Assembly (NCBI RefSeq): GCF_053078305.1
Contig: NZ_CP166878.1
DNA length: 32,715 bases
Origin: a plasmid
Reading direction: 5' to 3' (one strand)
The notes below the pieces were generated by a model that was not told the origin of the DNA, made no database searches, and saw nothing but the letters and a program-made list of their open reading frames with translations. A program made the translations under genes and the position numbers. Shown here piece after piece: positions 1-25,587 of the stretch; position 1 is the first letter of the stretch; each line of letters begins with the position of its first letter.

Positions 1-1866
1 ATGCAAGCAAATGATGAGTTTCTTCGCTTGGTTTTTGAAAACATATGGCCATGGTGGACATATGCCTGGGTTTTAGTTTTTTCTTTGTTATGTGTGTTTA
101 CATTTTCGGGTCATGCAGAAAAAAGTGGTGATAAGAGTACTCTGCGTTTCATTATTGAAGCAGCCAGGAAGAAATTACTTGTTGCATGGATTTTATGTAC
201 TCTTTTGTTCTTTCTATTTGTGTACATAATAGCGTGGAAACACTTTGGGGAAGATTCACATAAAGCATCACTTTATATGGAGTTATTGTATGAGCGGATT
301 GGTGACAAATCTTTCTCATTTGGTGATTATTGTGGTATAGCATTTGTGCTACTTTTTCCCTATGCCTGTCAGATAATTAATCGCCGTCTTATAAGACCAA
401 AACTATCATCATGGCTTCGTCGTTTTCGTGTGTCTCAGACCTCGGATACTATGAGTGATATTCGTGTTGAGAAAGGTAAATATTCGCCTAAAAACTTCAA
501 TCCTTTAGATTATTATAAGGATGGTCATTTCTTTTTAGGATTAGATGAAAATGATAAAGCAATCTACGTTACAGATGACTATTTGTCTAAAGTAAATATT
601 AAAATTTTAGGCGCAACGCAAACGGGTAAAGGTGTTATTCAGGGGGTTATTGCAGACCAGGCAATATTGAAAAATTGGGGTTTGTGGTTCTGGGATCAGA
701 AACCAGATAAATTTATTTACTCGATTATGAAACAACGTTGTGAGTCAGAGGGGCGAGAAATATATGAAGTTGATTTGAATGGTGAAGGTATAGGTGATTA
801 TGCGCCATTTAAGAATGGTACAAAACGTGAAATTTTGGATAGGTTTTTTAATGCGTTTTCTCTTGAGACTGGCGGGACTGATGCAGACTATTACAAAAAT
901 AATGCACAGGAGGTTATGTACTATATATATACTTTTTGGGACCGTTCGTTAAACGATTTACAAAAATTGTTGTCTGGTAGTGATGATAGAATACCGGAGG
1001 AAAAACAGGAATGGATAGCTAAAAATGGAGCTAATATTCGAACGCAGCTTAATAAATGGTTAGAGCTTCCTTGTCTATCTCCCGCTGATGGTCAGGGATT
1101 AAATGTAACTGAACTGGTTAAGTCAGGTGCGGTTATTTATGTAAAAGGTAGCACAAAAGATAAGGTTGTCAGGGCTGTCTTAAAATCAATGTTGCGTGAG
1201 TGGTCTGCGGCTGTTATTCGTGAACAACCAAAAAATCATGTGTTGGGGATAATTGATGAGGCCCGTTTTGTTATCTCGTCAGAGGTTGCTGATAGTCTGG
1301 CAACTATATTATCCTCAAATGCAAGTTTGTCTATTGCATATCAAGAGAGAGATGACCTTTTAAATATACCGGATGAAAAACCGCAGATTGCTCAGTCAAT
1401 AAAAAAAGGGACGGAAACAAATACCAATTTGACACTTGTTTATCGTTGTAATGACGAGACGGCTGAATGGGTTGCCAAAAATTCTGGTACAACTGCGAAG
1501 AGTCTGACAAAACTTGAAGAAGTCGAAACTGACGGTTATGGCGCGGAAACATGGAAGGGACGACGAATGATTGGACAGGAAGAGGATTACTATATACCAG
1601 TAAATACGGTTCTTGCAGTTGAAGAACGAGTTGGTATTATGCAGACTATGTTTGAACTCAGTCGGGTTTTATTTACATGCTGGGTTCCTGTTCAACGTTT
1701 TTATACACTTCCGGCCCGCCCTCAAACGGAGCACGATAATGTTCAGGATTGTATAAAGAATGATGGTTCAATTTCTCCGAGTGATGAGGATTACTTTAAT
1801 CCTGACATGATTAGTGATGAAGAGCTAGCGATGATAAATAAAACAGTATCGTCAGACAGTAAATAA
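1..1866 (+). CDS. virD4: Type IV secretion coupling protein (VirD4/TraG-family ATPase)
   Basis: 621-aa ORF with Walker A-like GATQTGKG and Walker B-like hydrophobic-DE (LGIIDEARFV), N-terminal hydrophobic segments. ORF begins at window edge, so the true start may lie upstream. Confidence 0.7.
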   Translation: MQANDEFLRLVFENIWPWWTYAWVLVFSLLCVFTFSGHAEKSGDKSTLRFIIEAARKKLLVAWILCTLLFFLFVYIIAWKHFGEDSHKASLYMELLYERIGDKSFSFGDYCGIAFVLLFPYACQIINRRLIRPKLSSWLRRFRVSQTSDTMSDIRVEKGKYSPKNFNPLDYYKDGHFFLGLDENDKAIYVTDDYLSKVNIKILGATQTGKGVIQGVIADQAILKNWGLWFWDQKPDKFIYSIMKQRCESEGREIYEVDLNGEGIGDYAPFKNGTKREILDRFFNAFSLETGGTDADYYKNNAQEVMYYIYTFWDRSLNDLQKLLSGSDDRIPEEKQEWIAKNGANIRTQLNKWLELPCLSPADGQGLNVTELVKSGAVIYVKGSTKDKVVRAVLKSMLREWSAAVIREQPKNHVLGIIDEARFVISSEVADSLATILSSNASLSIAYQERDDLLNIPDEKPQIAQSIKKGTETNTNLTLVYRCNDETAEWVAKNSGTTAKSLTKLEEVETDGYGAETWKGRRMIGQEEDYYIPVNTVLAVEERVGIMQTMFELSRVLFTCWVPVQRFYTLPARPQTEHDNVQDCIKNDGSISPSDEDYFNPDMISDEELAMINKTVSSDSK

Positions 1867-1922: not shown

Positions 1923-2987
1923 ATGGATAAAAAGACAAAAACATATCCTTTTGGTGACATTGAGTTTTTTGACCAGTTAGAGGAACATGCATGGGACCAG
2001 ATTCATGATGGTATGCTACCAATTATGGATTTGTATCTTGATCCGACAGTAACCGATATATTTATAAACAGGTATGACAATATATATACATCTGTCAATG
2101 GCAAGTATGTAAAGACCGACAGTTCCTTTTCCAGTGAACGGGCACTTAAAGCCTGGATTGATCAAATCGCAACGGTGTTGAGGCAGCCATTTTCAACGTC
2201 AGGAAACTATAAATATGGTGATGTCATTGAGCCTGTACTTGATGCCCGATTTCCCGATGGTTCCCGGTTGATGTGTACAGACCCGGTGATTTCACCGCAG
2301 GGTTCTACGGTAAGTCTTCGTAAAGTACCTAAGCAAATACTGGAAGAAAAAGATTTTATAAATTCCGGTATGTTGACGAGAGATATTCTTGATTATCTCA
2401 TTAGTGTTATACAAAAACGGAAAAATTTTATTGTTGCTGGTAATACTGGTTCTGGCAAAACATCACTTTTACGCTTGCTCGCCAGGTATATTGATACGAT
2501 GGAGCGTGTTATCACCGCCGAAGACACTCAAGAACTTCATATACACAGGTATTTTCCGTTAGGGATTGCTCTGGAAGCTGCACATCGTAAAGATGTGAAT
2601 GCGGATCTTCCTTCTCTGGTTCACCTGACTATGCGTGGTAATCCCGATCGTGTATGGGTTGGGGAGGTAAGAACGGCAGAGGCTATAGCTGCTTATTACA
2701 TGGTTCTGGCAAGTGGAACTATAGGTAATGCTACAACTCTGCACTCCGTTACCCCTATGGGGGCAATACGCAAAATGACCTGGCTTATGTCAAGCTATCT
2801 CAGTATCGATTTTCAGATAGCTCAGGATTTAATTATGTCAGAGGTTGACGTGATTATTCAGTGCCGGAGAACATCAAAGCATGGAAGAAGAATTACAGAT
2901 ATCGTCGAAATACGTGAAGGGAAAATTGTTCCTATATTCAAGTTTGATGAAGAGCAAGAAGTACATGTCAGGTTTGACAAAAAATGA
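1923..2987 (+). CDS. virB11: VirB11-family secretion ATPase
   Basis: 354-aa ORF; Walker A GNTGSGKTS, downstream ITAEDTQEL and conserved His-box region typical of VirB11/TrbB traffic ATPases; ATG at 1923. Confidence 0.9.
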   Translation: MDKKTKTYPFGDIEFFDQLEEHAWDQIHDGMLPIMDLYLDPTVTDIFINRYDNIYTSVNGKYVKTDSSFSSERALKAWIDQIATVLRQPFSTSGNYKYGDVIEPVLDARFPDGSRLMCTDPVISPQGSTVSLRKVPKQILEEKDFINSGMLTRDILDYLISVIQKRKNFIVAGNTGSGKTSLLRLLARYIDTMERVITAEDTQELHIHRYFPLGIALEAAHRKDVNADLPSLVHLTMRGNPDRVWVGEVRTAEAIAAYYMVLASGTIGNATTLHSVTPMGAIRKMTWLMSSYLSIDFQIAQDLIMSEVDVIIQCRRTSKHGRRITDIVEIREGKIVPIFKFDEEQEVHVRFDKK

Positions 2988-3000
2988 ACATTTAGCATTA

Positions 3001-3080
3001 TATGCTTATATGCTTATATGCTTATATGCTTATATGCTTATATGCTTATATGCTTATATGCTTATATGCTTATATGCTTA
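3001..3080. repeat. Perfect tandem octamer microsatellite (TATGCTTA x10)
   Basis: Ten uninterrupted head-to-tail copies of TATGCTTA directly readable in sequence, starting 14 bp after the virB11 stop. Confidence 0.95.
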
Positions 3081-3105
3081 TATCATTGTGTTTGTGTGAA
3101 ATATT

Positions 3106-3299
3106 GCTGTAACATCGACGGTCTACGACCACCTACCACCTGAATAGCTGTAGGTTCCGTGCGGTCAGGCTTGGCAGGGGGCTGACGCGGTTCCTGGCGA
3201 CATGAAACTCCCTGGTTAGGGGTATCGGCGCGACCTGGCATCTGTGACTCTATAAAGCCATTTTTCGCGCCTTCCATGCCGCTAAAGCGGCATATTCCA
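3106..3299 (+). repeat. 194-bp repeat family, copy 1 (upstream of ccdA)
   Basis: Near-identical to 18900-19093 and ~90% identical to 3962-4155; begins GCTGTAACATCGACGGTCTACG and ends with hairpin ATGCCGC-TAAA-GCGGCAT then ATTCCA. Confidence 0.9.
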
Positions 3300-3961: not shown

Positions 3962-4155
3962 GCTGTAACATCGACGGTCTACGACCACCTACCAGCCGAG
4001 TGGCTGTCTGTTCCGTGCAAATGGGCTTTGCAGGGGGCTGGCGCGGTTCCTGGCGACCTGAAAGCCCCTGGTTAGGGGTATCGGCGCGACCTGGCATCTG
4101 TGACTCTATGAAACCATTTTTCGCGCCTTCCATGCCGCTAAAGCGGCATATTCCA
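3962..4155 (+). repeat. 194-bp repeat family, copy 2 (downstream of ccdB)
   Basis: Same length and ends as copy 1; about 20 substitutions clustered in hairpin-forming segments, several compensatory. Confidence 0.9.
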
Positions 4156-11160: not shown

Positions 11161-11994
11161 ATGTTAGCGAAAAGAACTCTCTTATTTTCTGGAGTCCTGG
11201 CTGTTGTCATGACTACGTTCAGTGCAACAGCACAGCAATGTAGAGTGGTTAACTGGCGGCCTGGAACAATAGTTAAAGTGCAGTCCGCTTTATATCTGGG
11301 AACTCGTATAGAACTGCCGGAAGGCTCAATGTTATTAACGAAAGAACCCTTTTCTTCTAATGCGCTATGGGCCAGCACGGGAGCCGCAAATCAGGTCATG
11401 ATTCAGCCTACCAGCGAAGAGCCGGAAGGGCTGAAAACGATGGTAACAGTATTTATGACTAACGGGCAGACGCTGGATATTGAGGCTGTTCGGGTATCTC
11501 AGAACCAGAATCAACAGTGTGTTCAGATCCGTGGTGCAGGTATGCGTTCCGCAGACAGAAGTGCATTAAACACGGCTTACAGTATGGGAGCATCCGGGGC
11601 TGATGTGGCTCGTTTACAGAATGAAGTGAATACATTGCGGAGTAACAGAGAAAGCGAAGTCAAAAACGCAGTTCTTGAAGCTCTTCGTCGATACCGATAT
11701 TTCATTTATACCCGTTATAACTGGACGACAGGTAAAGGTTTTAGCGGAAAGAATATGATCTCTGATGTTTATGATGACGGGCGTTTTACTTATATCCGTA
11801 TCGCAAAACCGAATCGTGGATTACTTGCGGTACATGCAGATGTCGGAGGAAAACCAGCGGTTATTCCTACCAAGTACGACGATGCATATGCCATTTATCA
11901 TATGTCAGGGATATATCCCAAATTTACCCTTACCCTGGATGGCGTAAAGCTGGAAGTCAGCCGTGCGGATAATGCGACTGATGGGGAGAGCTAA
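11161..11994 (+). CDS. virB9: VirB9-like outer-membrane channel subunit
   Basis: Signal peptide, 277 aa, C-terminal beta-rich region; order B8-B9-B10. Confidence 0.7.
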   Translation: MLAKRTLLFSGVLAVVMTTFSATAQQCRVVNWRPGTIVKVQSALYLGTRIELPEGSMLLTKEPFSSNALWASTGAANQVMIQPTSEEPEGLKTMVTVFMTNGQTLDIEAVRVSQNQNQQCVQIRGAGMRSADRSALNTAYSMGASGADVARLQNEVNTLRSNRESEVKNAVLEALRRYRYFIYTRYNWTTGKGFSGKNMISDVYDDGRFTYIRIAKPNRGLLAVHADVGGKPAVIPTKYDDAYAIYHMSGIYPKFTLTLDGVKLEVSRADNATDGES

Positions 11995-13403: not shown

Positions 13404-13875
13404 AATATTGTTTTTTGCTGCATTCTTTGCATTTTCCTGTCAGGCAGCAAGAAGTCCTTTCCAGGTAGACAGGATGCGAGAAAGTGCGCCTGTTCAGATA
13501 TCACAGCAGGATGTGCATGTGCAGGGAAACTTTCAGGAGTTACAACCACTGGACAGGAACCAGAAAGATCCTCGCTGGCAGTATATCGATCCGTTGAGTG
13601 TTTACATGCGTACAGTTTGGCCCGATAACATCAGGACTATCAGAGCAGCGGTGAACTATCTCCTTGAACCAACAGGATATCGCCTGGTAACGAGTCATCC
13701 GGCACCGCGTGAGGCTTCCCTTCTTGTTGATAAGCCATTACCGCCAATTGCCAGAATGCAACGCACAATGCCCGTAGTTGATGCTCTTCAGTTGCTGGTT
13801 GGGCTTGATAATTATGTTGTTATTGATCGTGCCCACAGGCTGGTTTCATTTCAGAAAAATGGGGGCGGTGTATGA
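13381..13875 (+). CDS. Hypothetical exported protein within T4SS cluster
   Basis: Signal peptide MKRIIRAEILFFAAFFAFSCQA; 164 aa; overlaps virB10 end by 23 nt; no family recognised. Confidence 0.45.
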   Translation: MKRIIRAEILFFAAFFAFSCQAARSPFQVDRMRESAPVQISQQDVHVQGNFQELQPLDRNQKDPRWQYIDPLSVYMRTVWPDNIRTIRAAVNYLLEPTGYRLVTSHPAPREASLLVDKPLPPIARMQRTMPVVDALQLLVGLDNYVVIDRAHRLVSFQKNGGGV

Positions 13876-15147: not shown

Positions 15148-15591
15148 GTGGCAAGAAAAGGTGTAAATGAAGTCACCCTAGTTGGTTTTGTTGGTAATGC
15201 TCCGGTGATATCTCAGGCCAGTAGCGGGGATAAGATCGCGGTTATTTCCGTTGCAACAACTGAAACATGGACGGACAGAAAGACAGGTGCTGAAAAAGAG
15301 AAAACCGAGTGGCATCGAGTTGTTATTTTCGGAAAAACAGCTGAGATAACGGAACAATATGTAAAAAAAGGCACATTGCTGTACATTCGCGGGAAACTGC
15401 AAACCCGTAAGTGGCTGGACCGAGACAATATAGAGCGTTACAGCACGGAAATTATTGTTAATCCGGCAGGGGGAGAAATGCAGATGCTGGGGAGTCGCCA
15501 GGATAAAGTAACCGGAGGAAAAGCCGGAAACGACATTCCTGAAAATGGCGCTGGCAGTACGGACAAGCAGCAAAGCAATGAAACCGACTAA
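15148..15591 (+). CDS. ssb: Single-stranded DNA-binding protein (plasmid SSB)
   Basis: OB-fold region matches the SSB family (MARKGVNEVTLVGFVG..., TEWHRVVIFGK, LQTRKW); C-terminus ends QQSNETD with no DDDIPF-type tip. Confidence 0.9.
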   Translation: MARKGVNEVTLVGFVGNAPVISQASSGDKIAVISVATTETWTDRKTGAEKEKTEWHRVVIFGKTAEITEQYVKKGTLLYIRGKLQTRKWLDRDNIERYSTEIIVNPAGGEMQMLGSRQDKVTGGKAGNDIPENGAGSTDKQQSNETD

Positions 15592-15611
15592 CGCGCCTTC
15601 GGCTTGTTCAA

Positions 15612-15665
15612 CCCCGGAGTCACTCAGAAGCAAGTTCCGAGTGACCCCGGCGTTTTTGGTTTTTA
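15612..15665 (+). terminator. Rho-independent terminator after ssb
   Basis: 12-bp stem CCGGAGTCACTC / GAGTGACCCCGG followed by CGTTTTTGGTTTTT. Confidence 0.75.
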
Positions 15666-15818
15666 CTACGGGGATGATAATACCCATGAGGTTGATACTT
15701 GGCAGAGTCAGCTTGTGGGCATTATCAGGGGACTATAAAAGCCCATTTAAATTGTATTTAAATCATCCGGTAACGGCAAGAAAAATAATGTGTCATTCAG
15801 GCATAAGTGCAGGGCCAT

Positions 15819-16787
15819 ATGATTAGTCCGGCAATTGATTATTTTGCGGCAAACTTGCCATACCGACCTTATCACGCGAATGAATTGCTCTATGGGCTTC
15901 GTATCGATAAGGCAGCTAAAGCAGTGCTGGCGCGTTATATACAGCATAATCCACCTCATGCAATGTACTGGCTTGTTTTTGACGTTGACAGGCCAGTTGC
16001 GGCGATTGACTGGAATGATCTTAATGCGCCCACACCTAATTTTACGGTCAAAAATCCGGTTAATGGTCATGCACACCTGTTTTATGGGTTAAAAACGGCA
16101 GTTCGTGTTGCCAAAGACGGTAGCATTAAGGCGATCGAGTTTGCTGCTGCGGTAGAGCGAGGATTACGTGACAAACTTAAATCAGATATCGGCTATGCAG
16201 GGCTGATCTGTAAAAATCCTCTCCATACATGCTGGCAGGTTGTTGAATGGCGTGGAGAACTTTATGAGTTAGCTGAACTGGCTGATTATGTTGATTTGTA
16301 CGCGTCAACAGCGGCTAACGATGAACAGGCATTCGATATCGACTTTAGTTATGGGCTTGGGCGAAATTGTTGGCTCTTCAATCTGACCCGTATCTGGTCA
16401 TATACAGCAATCCGGCAGGGCTGGCCTGATTTCCCGCAATGGAAAGAAGCGGTGATTCAGCGTGTCGAAATGTATAACGTGCAGTTAAGCGTGCCTTTGT
16501 CTCACAAAGAATGTGTATGCATTGGCTCCAGCATCGCCAAATGGACGCATAGACGCTTCACTGAAGCTGGATTTGAGCAATATGTAGCTGATACCCATAC
16601 ATCAGAAATTCAGGCTCGTAGAGGGCGTAAGAATCGCTCAGAAGTGCAGGCTGCTAAGGGGCGTAAAGGTGGGAAAATATCTAAAAGAGGGATTGTTGAG
16701 GATTCTGCGCGGAGTTTGAAACCGTGGGTAGAGTTAGGGATCAGTCGGGCAACCTATTATCGACGTAGGGCAAATGAGACCAAATAA
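15819..16787 (+). CDS. ColE2-type plasmid replication initiator (primase-type Rep, Replicase family)
   Basis: N-terminal region YRPYHANELLYGLRIDKAAKAVLARYIQHNPPHAMYWLVFDVDR is characteristic of ColE2-like Rep proteins as I recall them; basic HTH-like C-terminus; origin-like sequence overlaps the stop. Confidence 0.65.
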   Translation: MISPAIDYFAANLPYRPYHANELLYGLRIDKAAKAVLARYIQHNPPHAMYWLVFDVDRPVAAIDWNDLNAPTPNFTVKNPVNGHAHLFYGLKTAVRVAKDGSIKAIEFAAAVERGLRDKLKSDIGYAGLICKNPLHTCWQVVEWRGELYELAELADYVDLYASTAANDEQAFDIDFSYGLGRNCWLFNLTRIWSYTAIRQGWPDFPQWKEAVIQRVEMYNVQLSVPLSHKECVCIGSSIAKWTHRRFTEAGFEQYVADTHTSEIQARRGRKNRSEVQAAKGRKGGKISKRGIVEDSARSLKPWVELGISRATYYRRRANETK

Positions 16788-16815
16788 ACAACCTATATCA
16801 GATAACAGCACCGGA
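16775..16815 (+). promoter_or_regulatory. ColE2-like replication origin candidate
   Basis: GAGACCAAATAAACAACCTATATCAGATAACAGCACC resembles the ColE2 minimal ori (remembered as ...AGACCAGATAAGCCTTATCAGATAACAGCGCC), positioned at the rep stop as in ColE2 plasmids. Confidence 0.55.
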
Positions 16816-17015
16816 TCTTGATCCTTGCAGACAGATCCTTTGCCTTTAGTGATCTTCCGATTTTCAGGTATTGAGTCTTTTATGAGAGAGATGATAGCGC
16901 CCGCCGCAGCCCCAGCGACCGAACCGCCAGGTGAGCGAGTAGGCGAGGAGGCGCAAGGGAGTCAGAGGTTGATGTTTGCACTTACGCTCGATGTTTGAGC
17001 ACGGCAAGAAGACAA

Positions 17016-17291
17016 ATGGAGAGTATGATGATGGTCTGTATACTTGTTGTGTCAAATAACGGTCGGGAAGAATTGATTGATTTTAATCCCGATCATGATT
17101 TAGCGCACATTATCAAATCATACCGGACACCAGAAAACAGGATGGTATGTATTATCCAGGATGGTAAGCGCATTCTTCGTTGGGATCGCAGTTATGCTTC
17201 CCGTGCAAAAAATCACTGGCGTAAGGTAGATCCAGACAGTTTTGAGATTTTAGGGTCTGTTGAATATCTCCGCTATGTTGGTCAGGGTTAG
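17016..17291 (+). CDS. Hypothetical protein (91 aa)
   Basis: ORF from ATG 17016 (track begins at TTG 16995); no family recognised; stop abuts the Tn21-like repeat. Confidence 0.35.
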   Translation: MESMMMVCILVVSNNGREELIDFNPDHDLAHIIKSYRTPENRMVCIIQDGKRILRWDRSYASRAKNHWRKVDPDSFEILGSVEYLRYVGQG

Positions 17292-17293
17292 TT

Positions 17294-17340
17294 GGGGCGT
17301 TGAAAACGGAAAATAACCCACGCTAAGACTGTTTTTTAAC
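17294..17340 (+). repeat. Tn21-subfamily-like inverted repeat, left arm
   Basis: GGGGCGTTGAAAACGGAAAATAACCCACGCTAAG matches the inner 25 bp of the Tn21 IR (remembered ...CAGAAAACGGAAAATAAAGCACGCTAAG); inverted partner at 18563-18609. Confidence 0.6.
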
Positions 17341-17649
17341 CAGGCTATGATAATGCTATCTGTGACGGATGATGGTCGTTGCTCTTTTGTTAATGCTAAC
17401 GGATGCGTACATTAGCATTAACTTTTTGTGTTATGTTGCACGTGAATTTTTGAGTTTTAATATTTATATAATGTTATGAATATTAAAGATAAATGATGAA
17501 CATGCTTTGTGATGGCTTTTGGCGCATAGATTGATCTTAAGATCTGCGCATGTTATTTTTATGCGGTTTTGACGAATTTATAAGGGTAGGACGTTCCCGT
17601 AACAGCGTCCAGGGGAGGGGGTAGCGAATTTATAGCCCCCGGAATGCAA

Positions 17650-17710
17650 CAACCCCCTGATATCTCTCTTAGAGCTTTTGCGGGGCCAAAGAAGATAATC
17701 AGGGGGTCCA
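17650..17710 (+). promoter_or_regulatory. Long stem-loop in repA leader (candidate antisense-RNA target)
   Basis: Arms CCCCCTGATATCTCTCTT / AAGAAGATAATCAGGGGG around an 18-nt loop containing GCCAA (one base off the conserved IncFII/IncB loop hexamer); location upstream of leader peptide and repA. Confidence 0.45.
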
Positions 17711-17743
17711 AAGCAGGCTTTTGCCTGTAAAGGATTATAGCAA

Positions 17744-17800
17744 ATGCATTTTTCAATACAAGACTACTGCCCGGCAATAAGTGCGGGCGGTGGTGGCTGA
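17744..17800 (+). CDS. Leader peptide overlapping repA start (translational coupling candidate)
   Basis: 18-codon ORF MHFSIQDYCPAISAGGGG whose stop lies 17 nt inside repA, the arrangement seen for tap/repY-type leader peptides. Confidence 0.45.
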   Translation: MHFSIQDYCPAISAGGGG

Positions 17801-18506
17801 AAAGAACAATTCCTTAATCCCCCGCATATCGCCGTCAGGGGTGGCCAAACAAAGTCCATGCTATAACGTTGTGTCGCGTAAGCGACGCCGTTTCCTCAAT
17901 CGCTGGATTAAATCGCTGGCGACGGTCGCTGGGCGTGTCAAAATCAAAAACGAACTCCGCCGCCGTATCCGGCATAACCGATATTGGGTTAATGAGGCTA
18001 ACAAGTTTGGCATAGAGGCACTTTGCGAACTGATGTTAGCTATCCTGGATGATCTCGATTTACGCTCCTGGGAAACCAGGCATAACCTCGAAACACTGGC
18101 AGAACGTGCCGGACTGGTGACACGCAGTGACGCGGGGCGTAAATCTATTTCCCGTGCCAGTAGGGGATGTGATCGCCTGGTCTGGTTGAATGCGATCATT
18201 ACAGATAAAGCGCCGTTTAACCCCTATGATGCACGGTGTGCCTGTAAACACATTGAAGTAACCGAAGACTTCTTTGCCATACTCGGCATTCCGTTAAAAC
18301 TGGTTTATCGGGAACGTGCCAGGCTGTTAAAGGCAGATCCTAATGAAATGATTTACTCCGGGGATGCCAGACTGATAGCTATCAGAGTCCAGAACTGGAC
18401 ACGGAAAGCGGCAGCCGGATTAGCCCGGATGAAAGCGAAACGCGACGCAGCTCGACAACGCAAAAAAGAATATTACGCTCACCCACCTACCCCTATTCCG
18501 GTCTGA
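17781..18506 (+). CDS. repA: IncFII-family replication initiator RepA
   Basis: Segment LETLAERAGLVTRSDAGRKSISRASRGCDRLVWLNAIIT aligns with the RepA1 core of R100-type proteins (SITTLAIECGLATESAAGKLSITRATRALTFLSELGLIT); GTG start right after an in-frame stop. Confidence 0.75.
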   Translation: MRAVVAEKNNSLIPRISPSGVAKQSPCYNVVSRKRRRFLNRWIKSLATVAGRVKIKNELRRRIRHNRYWVNEANKFGIEALCELMLAILDDLDLRSWETRHNLETLAERAGLVTRSDAGRKSISRASRGCDRLVWLNAIITDKAPFNPYDARCACKHIEVTEDFFAILGIPLKLVYRERARLLKADPNEMIYSGDARLIAIRVQNWTRKAAAGLARMKAKRDAARQRKKEYYAHPPTPIPV

Positions 18507-18562
18507 TACAGGCTAACTTACCGCCTTATGGGGCGGTGTATCGCCACGTCCATAATAAAAAG

Positions 18563-18609
18563 CTGTACAAAAAATAGTCTTGGCGTGGGTTATTTTCCGT
18601 TTTCCATGC
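18563..18609 (-). repeat. Tn21-subfamily-like inverted repeat, right arm
   Basis: Reverse complement reads GCATGGAAAACGGAAAATAACCCACGCCAAGACTATTTTTT, matching the left arm over ~36 bp with 2 mismatches; outer GGGG is absent. Confidence 0.6.
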
Positions 18610-18659
18610 TCAGAAAAGAGCAGTTATAAGCTGTATCATTGGGTAAACAATGCACAGGT

Positions 18660-18668
18660 TGTGGATAA
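18660..18668 (-). promoter_or_regulatory. Consensus DnaA box (TTATCCACA)
   Basis: Forward TGTGGATAA is the exact complement of the 9-mer consensus; lies about 150 bp downstream of repA. Confidence 0.5.
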
Positions 18669-18705
18669 TCATACTTAAAGTGCAAACGATATGCCGCAAT
18701 TACTC

Positions 18706-18750
18706 TTTTGCTTCTCTTTTAGTTACTTACGTACTAAAAGAGAAGCAAAA
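18706..18750. repeat. 18-bp perfect inverted repeat with 9-nt spacer (origin-region hairpin candidate)
   Basis: TTTTGCTTCTCTTTTAGT - TACTTACGT - ACTAAAAGAGAAGCAAAA; no T-run on either strand, so not a terminator. Confidence 0.8.
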
Positions 18751-18899
18751 AAGAAAAACATTACTGTTATCCCCTTTAACAAGTGAATAACCTAAAAACA
18801 TCGGCGCAAGCGCCTCAAAAGTAGCACCCCTCGCAAGCTCGGGGCATTAGAAACAACAGCATCCCATCATCACAATCGAACTATTATTCATCTATCTTC

Positions 18900-19093
18900 G
18901 CTGTAACATCGACGGTCTACGACCACCTACCACCTGAATAGCTGTAGGTTCCGTGCGGTCAGGCTTAGCAGGAGGCTGACGCGGTTCCTGGCGACATGAA
19001 ACTCCCTAGTTAGGGGTATCGGCGCGACCTGGCATCTGTGACTCTATAAAGCCATTTTTCGCGCCTTCCATGCCGCTAAAGCGGCATATTCCA
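18900..19093 (+). repeat. 194-bp repeat family, copy 3
   Basis: Differs from copy 1 by only a few substitutions; same orientation; sits between the repA origin region and the next gene. Confidence 0.9.
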
Positions 19094-22404: not shown

Positions 22405-22536
22405 TATACAATCACTTGATTCGATAATTATAAAATTAAGTGATTTTATGATTGCATGATTCTATGAGCATGGGATTATTAGAATGTTTGGCAGAGGTAC
22501 TATGTGAACAAAGGGGAGGGGAAAATGCCTAAAGTT
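22405..22536 (+). repeat. Orphan duplicate of par promoter-operator plus first 4 parA codons
   Basis: About 94% identical over 132 bp to 24844-24975, including RBS and ATGCCTAAAGTT, then diverges; the operator inverted repeat is degenerate in this copy. Confidence 0.85.
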
Positions 22537-22614
22537 GGAGCAGCGGGAGCGTTCGAACAGAGACTTACGGTTTCGTTCTTTGTGCAGCAGTTGAAACCGT
22601 AATTATTTGTTTTA

Positions 22615-24843: not shown

Positions 24844-24963
24844 TATACAATCACTTGATTCGATAATCATAAAATCAAGTGATTTTATGATTGCATAATT
24901 TTATGAGTATGAGATTATTAGAATGTTTGGCAGAGGTACTATGTGAACAAAGGGGAGGGGCAA
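24844..24963 (+). promoter_or_regulatory. par promoter-operator (candidate centromere/operator)
   Basis: Perfect 12-bp inverted repeat AATCACTTGATT ... AATCAAGTGATT plus reiterated TGATT motifs directly upstream of parA. Confidence 0.6.
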
Positions 24964-25587
24964 ATGCCTAAAGTTATAGCATTTTTAAATGGTAAGGGGG
25001 GGGTGTCTAAGACAACCTCGGCAGTCAATATTGCTACTGCTCTTGCTCGTAAGGGATACAAAGTTGTCGTTGTGGATACCGATCCTCAGGGAAGTGTTAG
25101 TAACTGGTATGATGACAGTAAGTGTGTTTTTGATGTAGCAGAAGCTACGACAGAAAAAGAAATTTACCGTTTGCGGAAGGCGCTTCCTTTGCACGATTTT
25201 ATCATTATTGATGGTGCTGCGGCGATTTCGGCGATATCGGCAGCTGCTGTTATGGTTTCTGATCTTGTCATTATCCCAGTTACTCCTTCGCCGCTTGATT
25301 TTGCTGCATGTGGCGCGATATTGGCAGTGATAGAAGCTCGGCAGGATTTACGCCCGGTGATTGCTCGCTTTTTGATTACTAAAAAAGTACAGCAAACGCA
25401 TATGCTATCTTTGCTGAAAGAATCTATTGCAGAAACAAGCATACCAGCATTAAAAACAGGAACGTCGTACAGGCAGTCATATATAAAGTCTATGCTAGAT
25501 GGTGGTACTATATTTGATACAAAAGATAGTGCTGCTAAAGGTGAAATATCAGTCATTACAGAAGAAATACTTGGACTATTAAAATGA
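24964..25587 (+). CDS. parA: ParA-family partition ATPase (ParF-like)
   Basis: Deviant Walker [19 protein letters not shown]; ATG 24964 with GGGGAGGGG RBS (ORF track begins at upstream GTG 24943). Confidence 0.9.

Follow-up and report, generated by a model that had tools for sequence, protein, structure and literature searches.

A ColE2-type and an IncFII-like replication module side by side on a family of Escherichia coli plasmids

Whether two replication initiator genes that lie side by side on one plasmid belong to two complete replicons, which of them maintains the plasmid and how they came together are questions raised by a ~30-kb plasmid of Escherichia coli (contig NZ_CP166878.1 of NCBI RefSeq assembly GCF_053078305.1). 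The whole stretch analysed, 32,715 nucleotides (nt) of one strand, is here called the window. Its backbone comprises a VirB/Trb-type type IV secretion system (T4SS; VirB4/B8/B9/B10/TrbM-type genes), ssb, ParA/ParG and toxin-antitoxin pairs. Both initiator genes are on the + strand: rep1 (15819-16787) encodes a ColE2-type primase-initiator of 322 amino acids (aa), and repA (17793-18506) an IncFII-superfamily initiator of 237 aa. An earlier note, made from the letters alone, had described a ColE2-type primase Rep with an origin-like sequence at its stop, followed within about 1 kb by an IncFII-type RepA with a leader peptide and an antisense-target stem-loop, and had concluded on a cointegrate or multi-replicon backbone. 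Profile searches, whose E-values for these assignments lie well beyond chance, and comparative alignments recovered all of these elements, with 1005 bases (16788-17792) between the Rep1 stop and the conserved RepA start, and left of the conclusion only its second half. Judged from these comparisons, the window very probably holds two theta replicons, both complete, that belong to unrelated families and stand in tandem with the same orientation, a ColE2-type module (~15600-16812) and an IncFII-superfamily module with repBA-type control (~17380-18870), joined by modular recombination.

The pair recurs in a family of plasmids. The nearest relatives of the window in PLSDB are 10 E. coli plasmids of 28-35 kb, which are 97-99% identical across the region. 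Both modules were present in all 12 family plasmids read, namely these 10 (with rep1 split in one of them, L006), the window and the 27.5-kb pSK1402M2, and no rep1-carrying member without repA was found among the 10 PLSDB members and pSK1402M2. In complete E. coli genomes module 1 occurred in 14 of 5,426, every carrier being a plasmid of 27-35 kb; among the carriers newly found in RefSeq, repA was examined in pSK1402M2 only. The reading frame of rep1 is intact, with no frameshift, in nine of the 10 PLSDB members and in pSK1402M2.

The assignment of module 1 starts from Rep1 itself. Its archaeo-eukaryotic primase (AEP) domain matches Pfam Replicase (PF03090) with E 5.5e-43 over the whole model (positions 2-130 of 130), and residues 182-316, the predicted helix-turn-helix (HTH) origin-binding domain, match the DNA-binding domain of ColE2-P9 Rep (PDB 3VW4) with E 7.2e-39. 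The PriCT domain, for which the earlier note had proposed a search together with Replicase, gave only a weak match (PriCT_1, E 0.13, residues 181-243) in the same stretch that aligns to 3VW4. The latter alignment runs in two stretches (182-253 and 274-316), between which Rep1 has an insertion of ~20 aa compared with ColE2-P9 Rep (window 16576-16700, residues ~253-294); it precedes the DNA-binding helix and duplicates an RGRK motif (ARRGRKNRSEVQAAKGRKGG). Overall, aa identity is ~60% between Rep1 and the single Rep carried by Col156 and colicin plasmids of 5-6 kb.

The hallmarks of ColE2 include a 32-bp minimal origin next to rep and an AGA primer (PMC3163176, PMC5304414). A predicted minimal origin of this type, ori1 (16776-16812, + strand), extends over the rep1 stop codon TAA (16785-16787), with the core CCTATATCAGATAACAGC and AGA at 16800-16802. 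The complete sequence, GAGACCAAATAAACAACCTATATCAGATAACAGCACC, aligns with TAGACCAAATAAGCCTATATCAGATAACAGCGCC at the rep stop of the 5-6 kb Col156/colicin plasmids (L003, L004), and has 2-3 additional bases between its left and right halves in comparison with Col156; this comparison was based on Col156 and colicin plasmid sequences together with secondary citations, in place of the ColE2-P9 sequence itself. Nucleotide similarity to small ColE2-type plasmids is limited to ~15851-16812 and ends right after ori1. Within the 10 near-identical backbones, three matched variants were found that combine the C-terminal ~45 aa of Rep1, the region of the origin-recognition helix, with the left half of ori1, while the right half is constant. 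In variant C, the insertion region of Rep1 carries a different, longer linker. Matched variation of Rep C-terminus and origin is the pattern that would be expected of a working initiator-origin pair, and co-replacement of the initiator and origin specificity determinants in ColE2-related plasmids is attributed to Hiraga et al. (1994), as cited in PMC5304414. Outside the family, PLSDB contained no Rep-origin cassette at high identity and no donor of the ColE2 module or of the specificity cassettes, the other matches being only ~70% identical and located on small Edwardsiella plasmids.

Upstream, the control region of module 1 is delimited by a G+C-rich hairpin with a U-run (15612-15650, + strand), judging from its fold a probable terminator after ssb. 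In ColE2, an antisense RNA acts against the rep 5' untranslated region (PMC5304414). A candidate unit of this style was found on the minus strand of the rep1 5' leader (15673-15779), with a promoter-like site running from 15779 to 15751 (TTGCCG-17-TACAAT) and a long stem-loop at 15673-15731 (z = -3.4 for the minus-strand fold). This candidate antisense RNA fits the ColE2 layout; the leader as a whole shows no nucleotide similarity to those of L003 and L004. Unannotated and truncated remnants of a ColE2-type rep were seen besides in the E. coli IncF plasmid L027 (NZ_LR898875.1, 5001-5645) and in similar ones of 98-178 kb. The remnant in L027 corresponds to residues 41-261 at ~65% aa identity, adjoins a colicin/microcin immunity gene and the TonB-dependent receptor/senB region, and is still counted by MOB-suite as replicon rep_cluster_2131.

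RepA of module 2 matches the Pfam family IncFII_repA (PF02387) weakly, with E 8e-7, and reproducibly, as all eight relatives scanned match as well (seven at E ≤ 0.001, best 1.6e-8). Its open frame reaches 17781. A start at the GTG at that position was rejected: the relatives have GTT, GTA or GTC there, while GTG 17793 is kept in 9/9 and is used by recent PGAP annotation.

For the leader and stem-loop in front of repA the confirmation is strong. Rfam PK-repBA (RF01089) matches 17651-17778 on the + strand over the full model with 86.4 bits (gathering score 45, E 4e-18). Within this repBA-type translational control region, the antisense target is stem-loop I (17652-17707); a small hairpin and, at 17769-17777, the distal partner of the pseudoknot, GCCCGGCAA, are also part of it. 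A leader-peptide open reading frame (ORF) of 28 codons (17644-17730, + strand) runs through stem-loop I. For comparison, nine replicons were aligned: the window, a 24-kb E. coli plasmid and seven plasmids of 26-113 kb from Salmonella, Pantoea, Klebsiella and Enterobacter, typed IncFII by MOB-suite. The leader ATG (17644) is invariant across all nine, and the ORF is kept in each of them despite indels, with varying length and sequence. On the opposite strand, an antisense RNA of the RNAI/Inc/CopA kind is predicted at about 17645-17739, complementary to stem-loop I and ending in a hairpin with a U-rich tail (z = -3.5 for the minus-strand fold). Its -10 element TATAAT is the complement of 17734-17739, within a block, GGATTATAGCAAATGCA, that is invariant in the nine relatives and whose complement forms a perfect -10; the -35 is weak, and a consensus promoter scan does not call the site. 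The apical loop and the sequence just 5' of the repA start are complementary in each lineage and change together between lineages: seven relatives have the pseudoknot core UGGCG(G)/(C)CGCCA, the 24-kb plasmid has UUGCCGG/CCGGCAA and the window UUGC-G-GGGC/GCCC-G-GCAA.

Module 2 does not end with repA. A hairpin (ACCGCC-TTATGG-GGCGGT, 18520-18537, + strand) stands just 3' of the gene, at the position of a CIS/terminator element, which may be its function; its stem is invariant across relatives. Alignment of the nine replicons downstream of repA then revealed a non-coding block at approximately 18650-18870 that is more conserved than repA itself, with a DnaA box TTATCCACA (complement of 18660-18668), an A+T-rich 51-nt hairpin (18703-18753), a DnaA-like box (18782-18790) and a GC hairpin. 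From its position and conservation, which are typical of IncFII-type replicons, this block is the putative origin ori2. With ori2 lying downstream of 18506, the end coordinate given in the earlier note cuts module 2 short.

The identity, completeness and conservation of both modules are regarded as established. Replication of the ColE2 type is dependent on DNA polymerase I and uses the primer ppApGpA, which Rep synthesises. By analogy with ColE2 (class C), the C-terminal HTH of Rep1 would bind the ~35-bp origin over its own stop codon and open it, Rep1 would make a short AGA primer and DNA polymerase I would extend it, while the antisense RNA of the rep1 leader probably limits Rep1 synthesis. 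In module 2, following the control logic of IncB, IncI and IncL/M plasmids, the short antisense RNA would pair, in the repA leader, with stem-loop I; RepA would be translated only where the leader peptide is translated and the loop-to-distal pseudoknot by the repA start has formed, and it would act at the DnaA-box origin just 3' of its gene.

That module 2 is sufficient for plasmid maintenance is strongly supported by the sequence comparisons, and we count it among the established points. Its RepA module is ~90% nt and 97% aa identical to that of complete 24-kb conjugative plasmids, which have no other Rep; one of these, L026, has a RepA of 97% aa identity and no ColE2-type rep. In the relatives typed IncFII by MOB-suite, this RepA is the only typed replicon, with the exception of L022, which also has rep_cluster_1418. 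The ratio of non-synonymous to synonymous substitution rates (dN/dS) of repA is 0.06 against the copy of the 24-kb plasmid (40 synonymous and nine non-synonymous changes) and ranges from 0.06 to 0.21. Further support comes from within the family. In L006 (pAVS0947-C, NZ_CP124463.1) rep1 is split by a 3.84-kb Tn3-family element (31517-35356) with resolvase, transposase, 38-bp inverted repeats and a 5-bp duplication, CATTA (window 16124-16128). Since this plasmid persists, it must rely on RepA. The L006 record has many homopolymer frameshifts, so that the small-scale gene disruptions in it, including the one in repA, look like sequencing errors.

Several results weigh against two complete and functional replicons. 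For module 2, the protein evidence is weak: besides the modest Pfam match, NCBIfam RepA_IncFII_LM reaches 53.8 bits, under its cut-off of 70, and BLASTP of the 237-aa RepA to IncL/M RepA (355 aa) is barely detectable. In the window, the loop-to-distal pairing has a central G-G mismatch (4+4 bp), and tested against shuffled loops this complementarity is not significant in any single sequence. For module 1, the consensus scan gave no promoter for rep1 on the + strand, and the candidate antisense RNA of rep1 has no counterpart in Rfam, matches to mir-155 and other eukaryotic families being sub-threshold palindromes. The dN/dS values of rep1 within the family, 0.17-0.49, rest on only 3-7 substitutions of each class, and the insertion in L006 shows that rep1 is dispensable.

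Some of these points feed an alternative that would leave replication to the IncFII-type module alone, with the ColE2-type module as a captured passenger, silent, redundant or slowly decaying. It is consistent with a family member that remained a plasmid after destruction of its rep1, with the missing consensus promoter, with selection that appears weaker on rep1 than on repA, with a ParA/ParG partition system, typical of low-copy control, and with the truncated ColE2-type rep fossils in large IncF plasmids. However, rep1 is full-length in nine of the 10 PLSDB members and in pSK1402M2, and its origin core is unchanged. Moreover, replacement has affected the DNA-binding C-terminus together with the left origin half at least twice and has each time left an intact ORF, which is hard to square with a dead gene. 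On such indirect evidence module 1 may be active in the window plasmid, and we regard the passenger explanation as somewhat unlikely.

Another alternative takes Rep1 mainly as a transfer-associated primase, which would prime the complementary strand at its own site on entry into a new cell, with RepA in charge of steady-state replication. Conjugative plasmids often pair ssb with a primase. In the window, rep1 lies 228 bp 3' of ssb (15148-15591, + strand; NCBIfam TIGR00621, 131 bits, above cut-off; annotated ssb in relatives), the last gene of the T4SS-linked operon and directly 5' of module 1, and is co-oriented with the T4SS genes; ColE2 Rep is, in addition, a sequence-specific primase (PMC5304414). 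However, module 1 has all the parts of a ColE2 replicon, a double-strand origin included. In the backbone relative L014 (VirB4 54% aa identical), two small ORFs and then a distantly related RepA (27% aa identity) come after ssb; neither a primase nor a ColE2-type rep is present there, so that rep1 looks inserted rather than part of the transfer operon. Despite the full-looking T4SS, no relaxase was recognisable in the whole plasmid, and neither the origin of transfer (oriT) nor a leading region was located. Such a role for Rep1 therefore seems quite improbable. The 621-aa ORF1 (window 1-1866) gave only a faint match to a coupling protein (TraD), without a Pfam domain.

A true cointegrate, in which a small plasmid of the ColE2 type and one of the IncFII type would have fused entire, might be read from two replicons side by side and from short small-plasmid elements (79 nt at 16882-16960 and 194-nt repeats) on the module borders or close to them. 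It is highly improbable, as the ColE2-type DNA amounts to only ~1 kb of rep and ori with similarity ending at the origin, the window has no mob, colicin/immunity or cer genes with it and no insertion sequence (IS) at the junctions, and PLSDB holds no donor of the module or cassette. Of the features by which a cointegrate would be recognised, backbone genes of both parents and a junction IS or long repeats, only the shared 79-nt and 194-nt elements were found nearby. Thus the multi-replicon part of the earlier conclusion stands on two complete modules and the cointegrate part falls: as far as can be read from sequence, the plasmid is a mosaic multi-replicon that arose by modular recombination and not by fusion of two whole plasmids. 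The gene order of L014 suggests that an RepA-type replicon after ssb is the older state, into which the rep1-ori1 cassette appears to have been inserted. The RepA block (~17380-19093, ~1.7 kb), for its part, is common to otherwise different 24-kb plasmids.

Several short elements lie on the borders of the modules or near them. At the left limit of the shared RepA module lies a 32-bp palindrome (17390-17421) conserved with the 24-kb plasmids, which may be an operator. The right edge is formed by the third copy of a 194-nt direct repeat (3106-3299, 3962-4155 and 18900-19093, + strand; 91-98% identical), copies 1 and 2 of which bracket a ccdAB toxin-antitoxin pair. Hundreds of small plasmids, the 1.5-kb Col(MG828) ones among them, carry this element at 80-90% identity; it could be a recombination, transfer or priming site. 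The 79-nt element in the spacer just right of ori1 (16882-16960, + strand) is shared with 1.5-kb Col(MG828) and other plasmids of 1.5-5.7 kb, where it stands ~100 bp from the 194-nt element, and on both sides of the RepA module in the 24-kb plasmid L002 there are related copies in inverted orientation (11708-11767 on the minus and 13672-13728 on the + strand). A third replicon of the Col(MG828)/pKL1 type, at which these two elements hint, was rejected, as the window has no homologue of that Rep. The gene repA is enclosed, together with its control region, between the two arms of a 59-nt inverted repeat (17297-17355 and 18551-18609), 80% complementary. The left arm repeats, inverted, the sequence that directly follows the repA terminator, and it corresponds, again inverted, to the CIS-side region of L002, while the 24-kb relatives have no left arm; the repeat could be a scar of recombination or a site where a protein binds.

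Between the replicons and far from any pilus genes, the spacer also encodes an 88-aa ORF of the PilI family (17025-17291, + strand; PF10623, 9.5e-33, full-length), of which the 24-kb plasmids have a 70% identical copy elsewhere on their backbone. The ORF was considered as a CopB/RepC-like copy-number regulator and discarded as such, being a full-length PilI and unlike both IncL/M RepC and the small ORFs upstream of RepA in L014. Elsewhere in the window, a tandem array of the octamer TTATATGC (2982-3101; 10 perfect units with degenerate ends) was noted between a VirB11/TrbB-like ATPase gene and the first 194-nt repeat, and a 138-nt direct repeat (22405-22542 and 24844-24981, 93% identical) with an internal palindrome in each copy. 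The second of these, which directly precedes parA (24943-25587), may be a partition site or an operator.

Measured against known systems, module 1 shares with the class C theta plasmids ColE2-P9, ColE3-CA38 and Col156 the AEP primase with a C-terminal HTH homologous to the solved ColE2-P9 domain, the origin at the rep stop with a TATCAGATAACAGC core and AGA primer site, the exchangeable specificity pair of Rep C-terminus and origin, and a layout that suggests an antisense RNA in the leader. It is unlike them in residing on a ~30-kb T4SS plasmid instead of a 5-7 kb Col plasmid, without mob, colicin or cer; in the distance of its Rep, for which the nearest small-plasmid Rep is that of ~60% aa identity; in the Rep insertion and the additional origin bases described above; and in an upstream control region that has no nucleotide similarity to theirs. 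Module 2 resembles the PK-repBA plasmids IncB pMU720, IncI-alpha ColIb-P9 and IncL/M in stem-loop I as antisense target, the leader ORF through it, a conserved antisense promoter on the opposite strand (predicted here) and the loop-to-distal complementarity by the repA start. Unlike these, its RepA is short and barely alignable to that of IncL/M, and its pseudoknot core is UUGC.GGGC/GCCC.GCAA instead of GGCG/CGCC; the leader ORF of the window also stops earlier than in its relatives.

With IncFII (R1, R100) and with the 24-38 kb MPF_T plasmids typed 'IncFII', module 2 has in common the IncFII_repA superfamily, a DnaA-box origin 3' of repA and a layout that fits low-copy antisense control, and the closest likeness is to the 24-kb conjugative plasmids of E. 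coli and Klebsiella, with the nucleotide and protein identities given above. The HTH regulator gene upstream in the 24-38 kb relatives is absent in the window, which has the PilI-family ORF and the 59-nt inverted copy of the post-repA region there instead. Unlike those IncFII-typed plasmids, the window family is left without a replicon type by MOB-suite, which predicts it to be non-mobilizable. The member pEc631_3 has been listed as 'IncFII family' (PMC7249450), and apart from a typing table our literature search on the plasmid family turned up nothing.

Multi-replicon plasmids such as IncF plasmids (FII+FIA+FIB) and the Pseudomonas pPT23A family (ColE2-like RepA) likewise combine at least two close modules on one backbone by modular exchange; the window is unlike them in pairing a ColE2-type with an IncFII-like module. 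In a survey of 24,000 non-redundant plasmids, more than 30% had several replicons, often close together, and fusion of Col-like replicons such as Col156 with larger plasmids was consistently infrequent (bioRxiv 10.64898/2026.05.05.722934). Given that rarity, the present pairing is somewhat unusual, and since the family is untyped, it would not be counted in such surveys. Nevertheless, both modules belong to well-described families, the arrangement is common and well understood, and no new mechanism is implied.

The value of the finding is therefore mostly one of annotation, in that the second, ColE2-type replicon of this family was so far unrecorded. For the study of how a primase replicon of the high-copy type shares one molecule with an antisense-controlled one of the low-copy type, the family is also a compact system provided by nature, and it includes a natural rep1 knock-out as well as three initiator-origin specificity variants. 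Hosts shared with ColE2-type plasmids would bear on this variation. Strain 631, host of a family member, also has two Col156-type plasmids (PMC7249450). A 5.2-kb ColE2-type plasmid (NZ_CP124465.1) stands beside pAVS0947-C and an untyped 4.1-kb plasmid (NZ_CP045285.1) beside pLAU-OXA4 (NZ_CP045281.1), where co-residence is read from the adjacent accessions only. It may even be, unlikely as we hold this to be, that the ColE2-type cassette is actively used as a second replicon whose initiator-origin specificity was repeatedly switched, as three variants among ~10 otherwise 97-99% identical plasmids might suggest. If so, switching would let a conjugative plasmid dodge incompatibility with the small Col156/ColE2-type plasmids of the same E. 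coli hosts, and labour could be split between primase-driven establishment after transfer and subsequent low-copy maintenance of the IncFII type.

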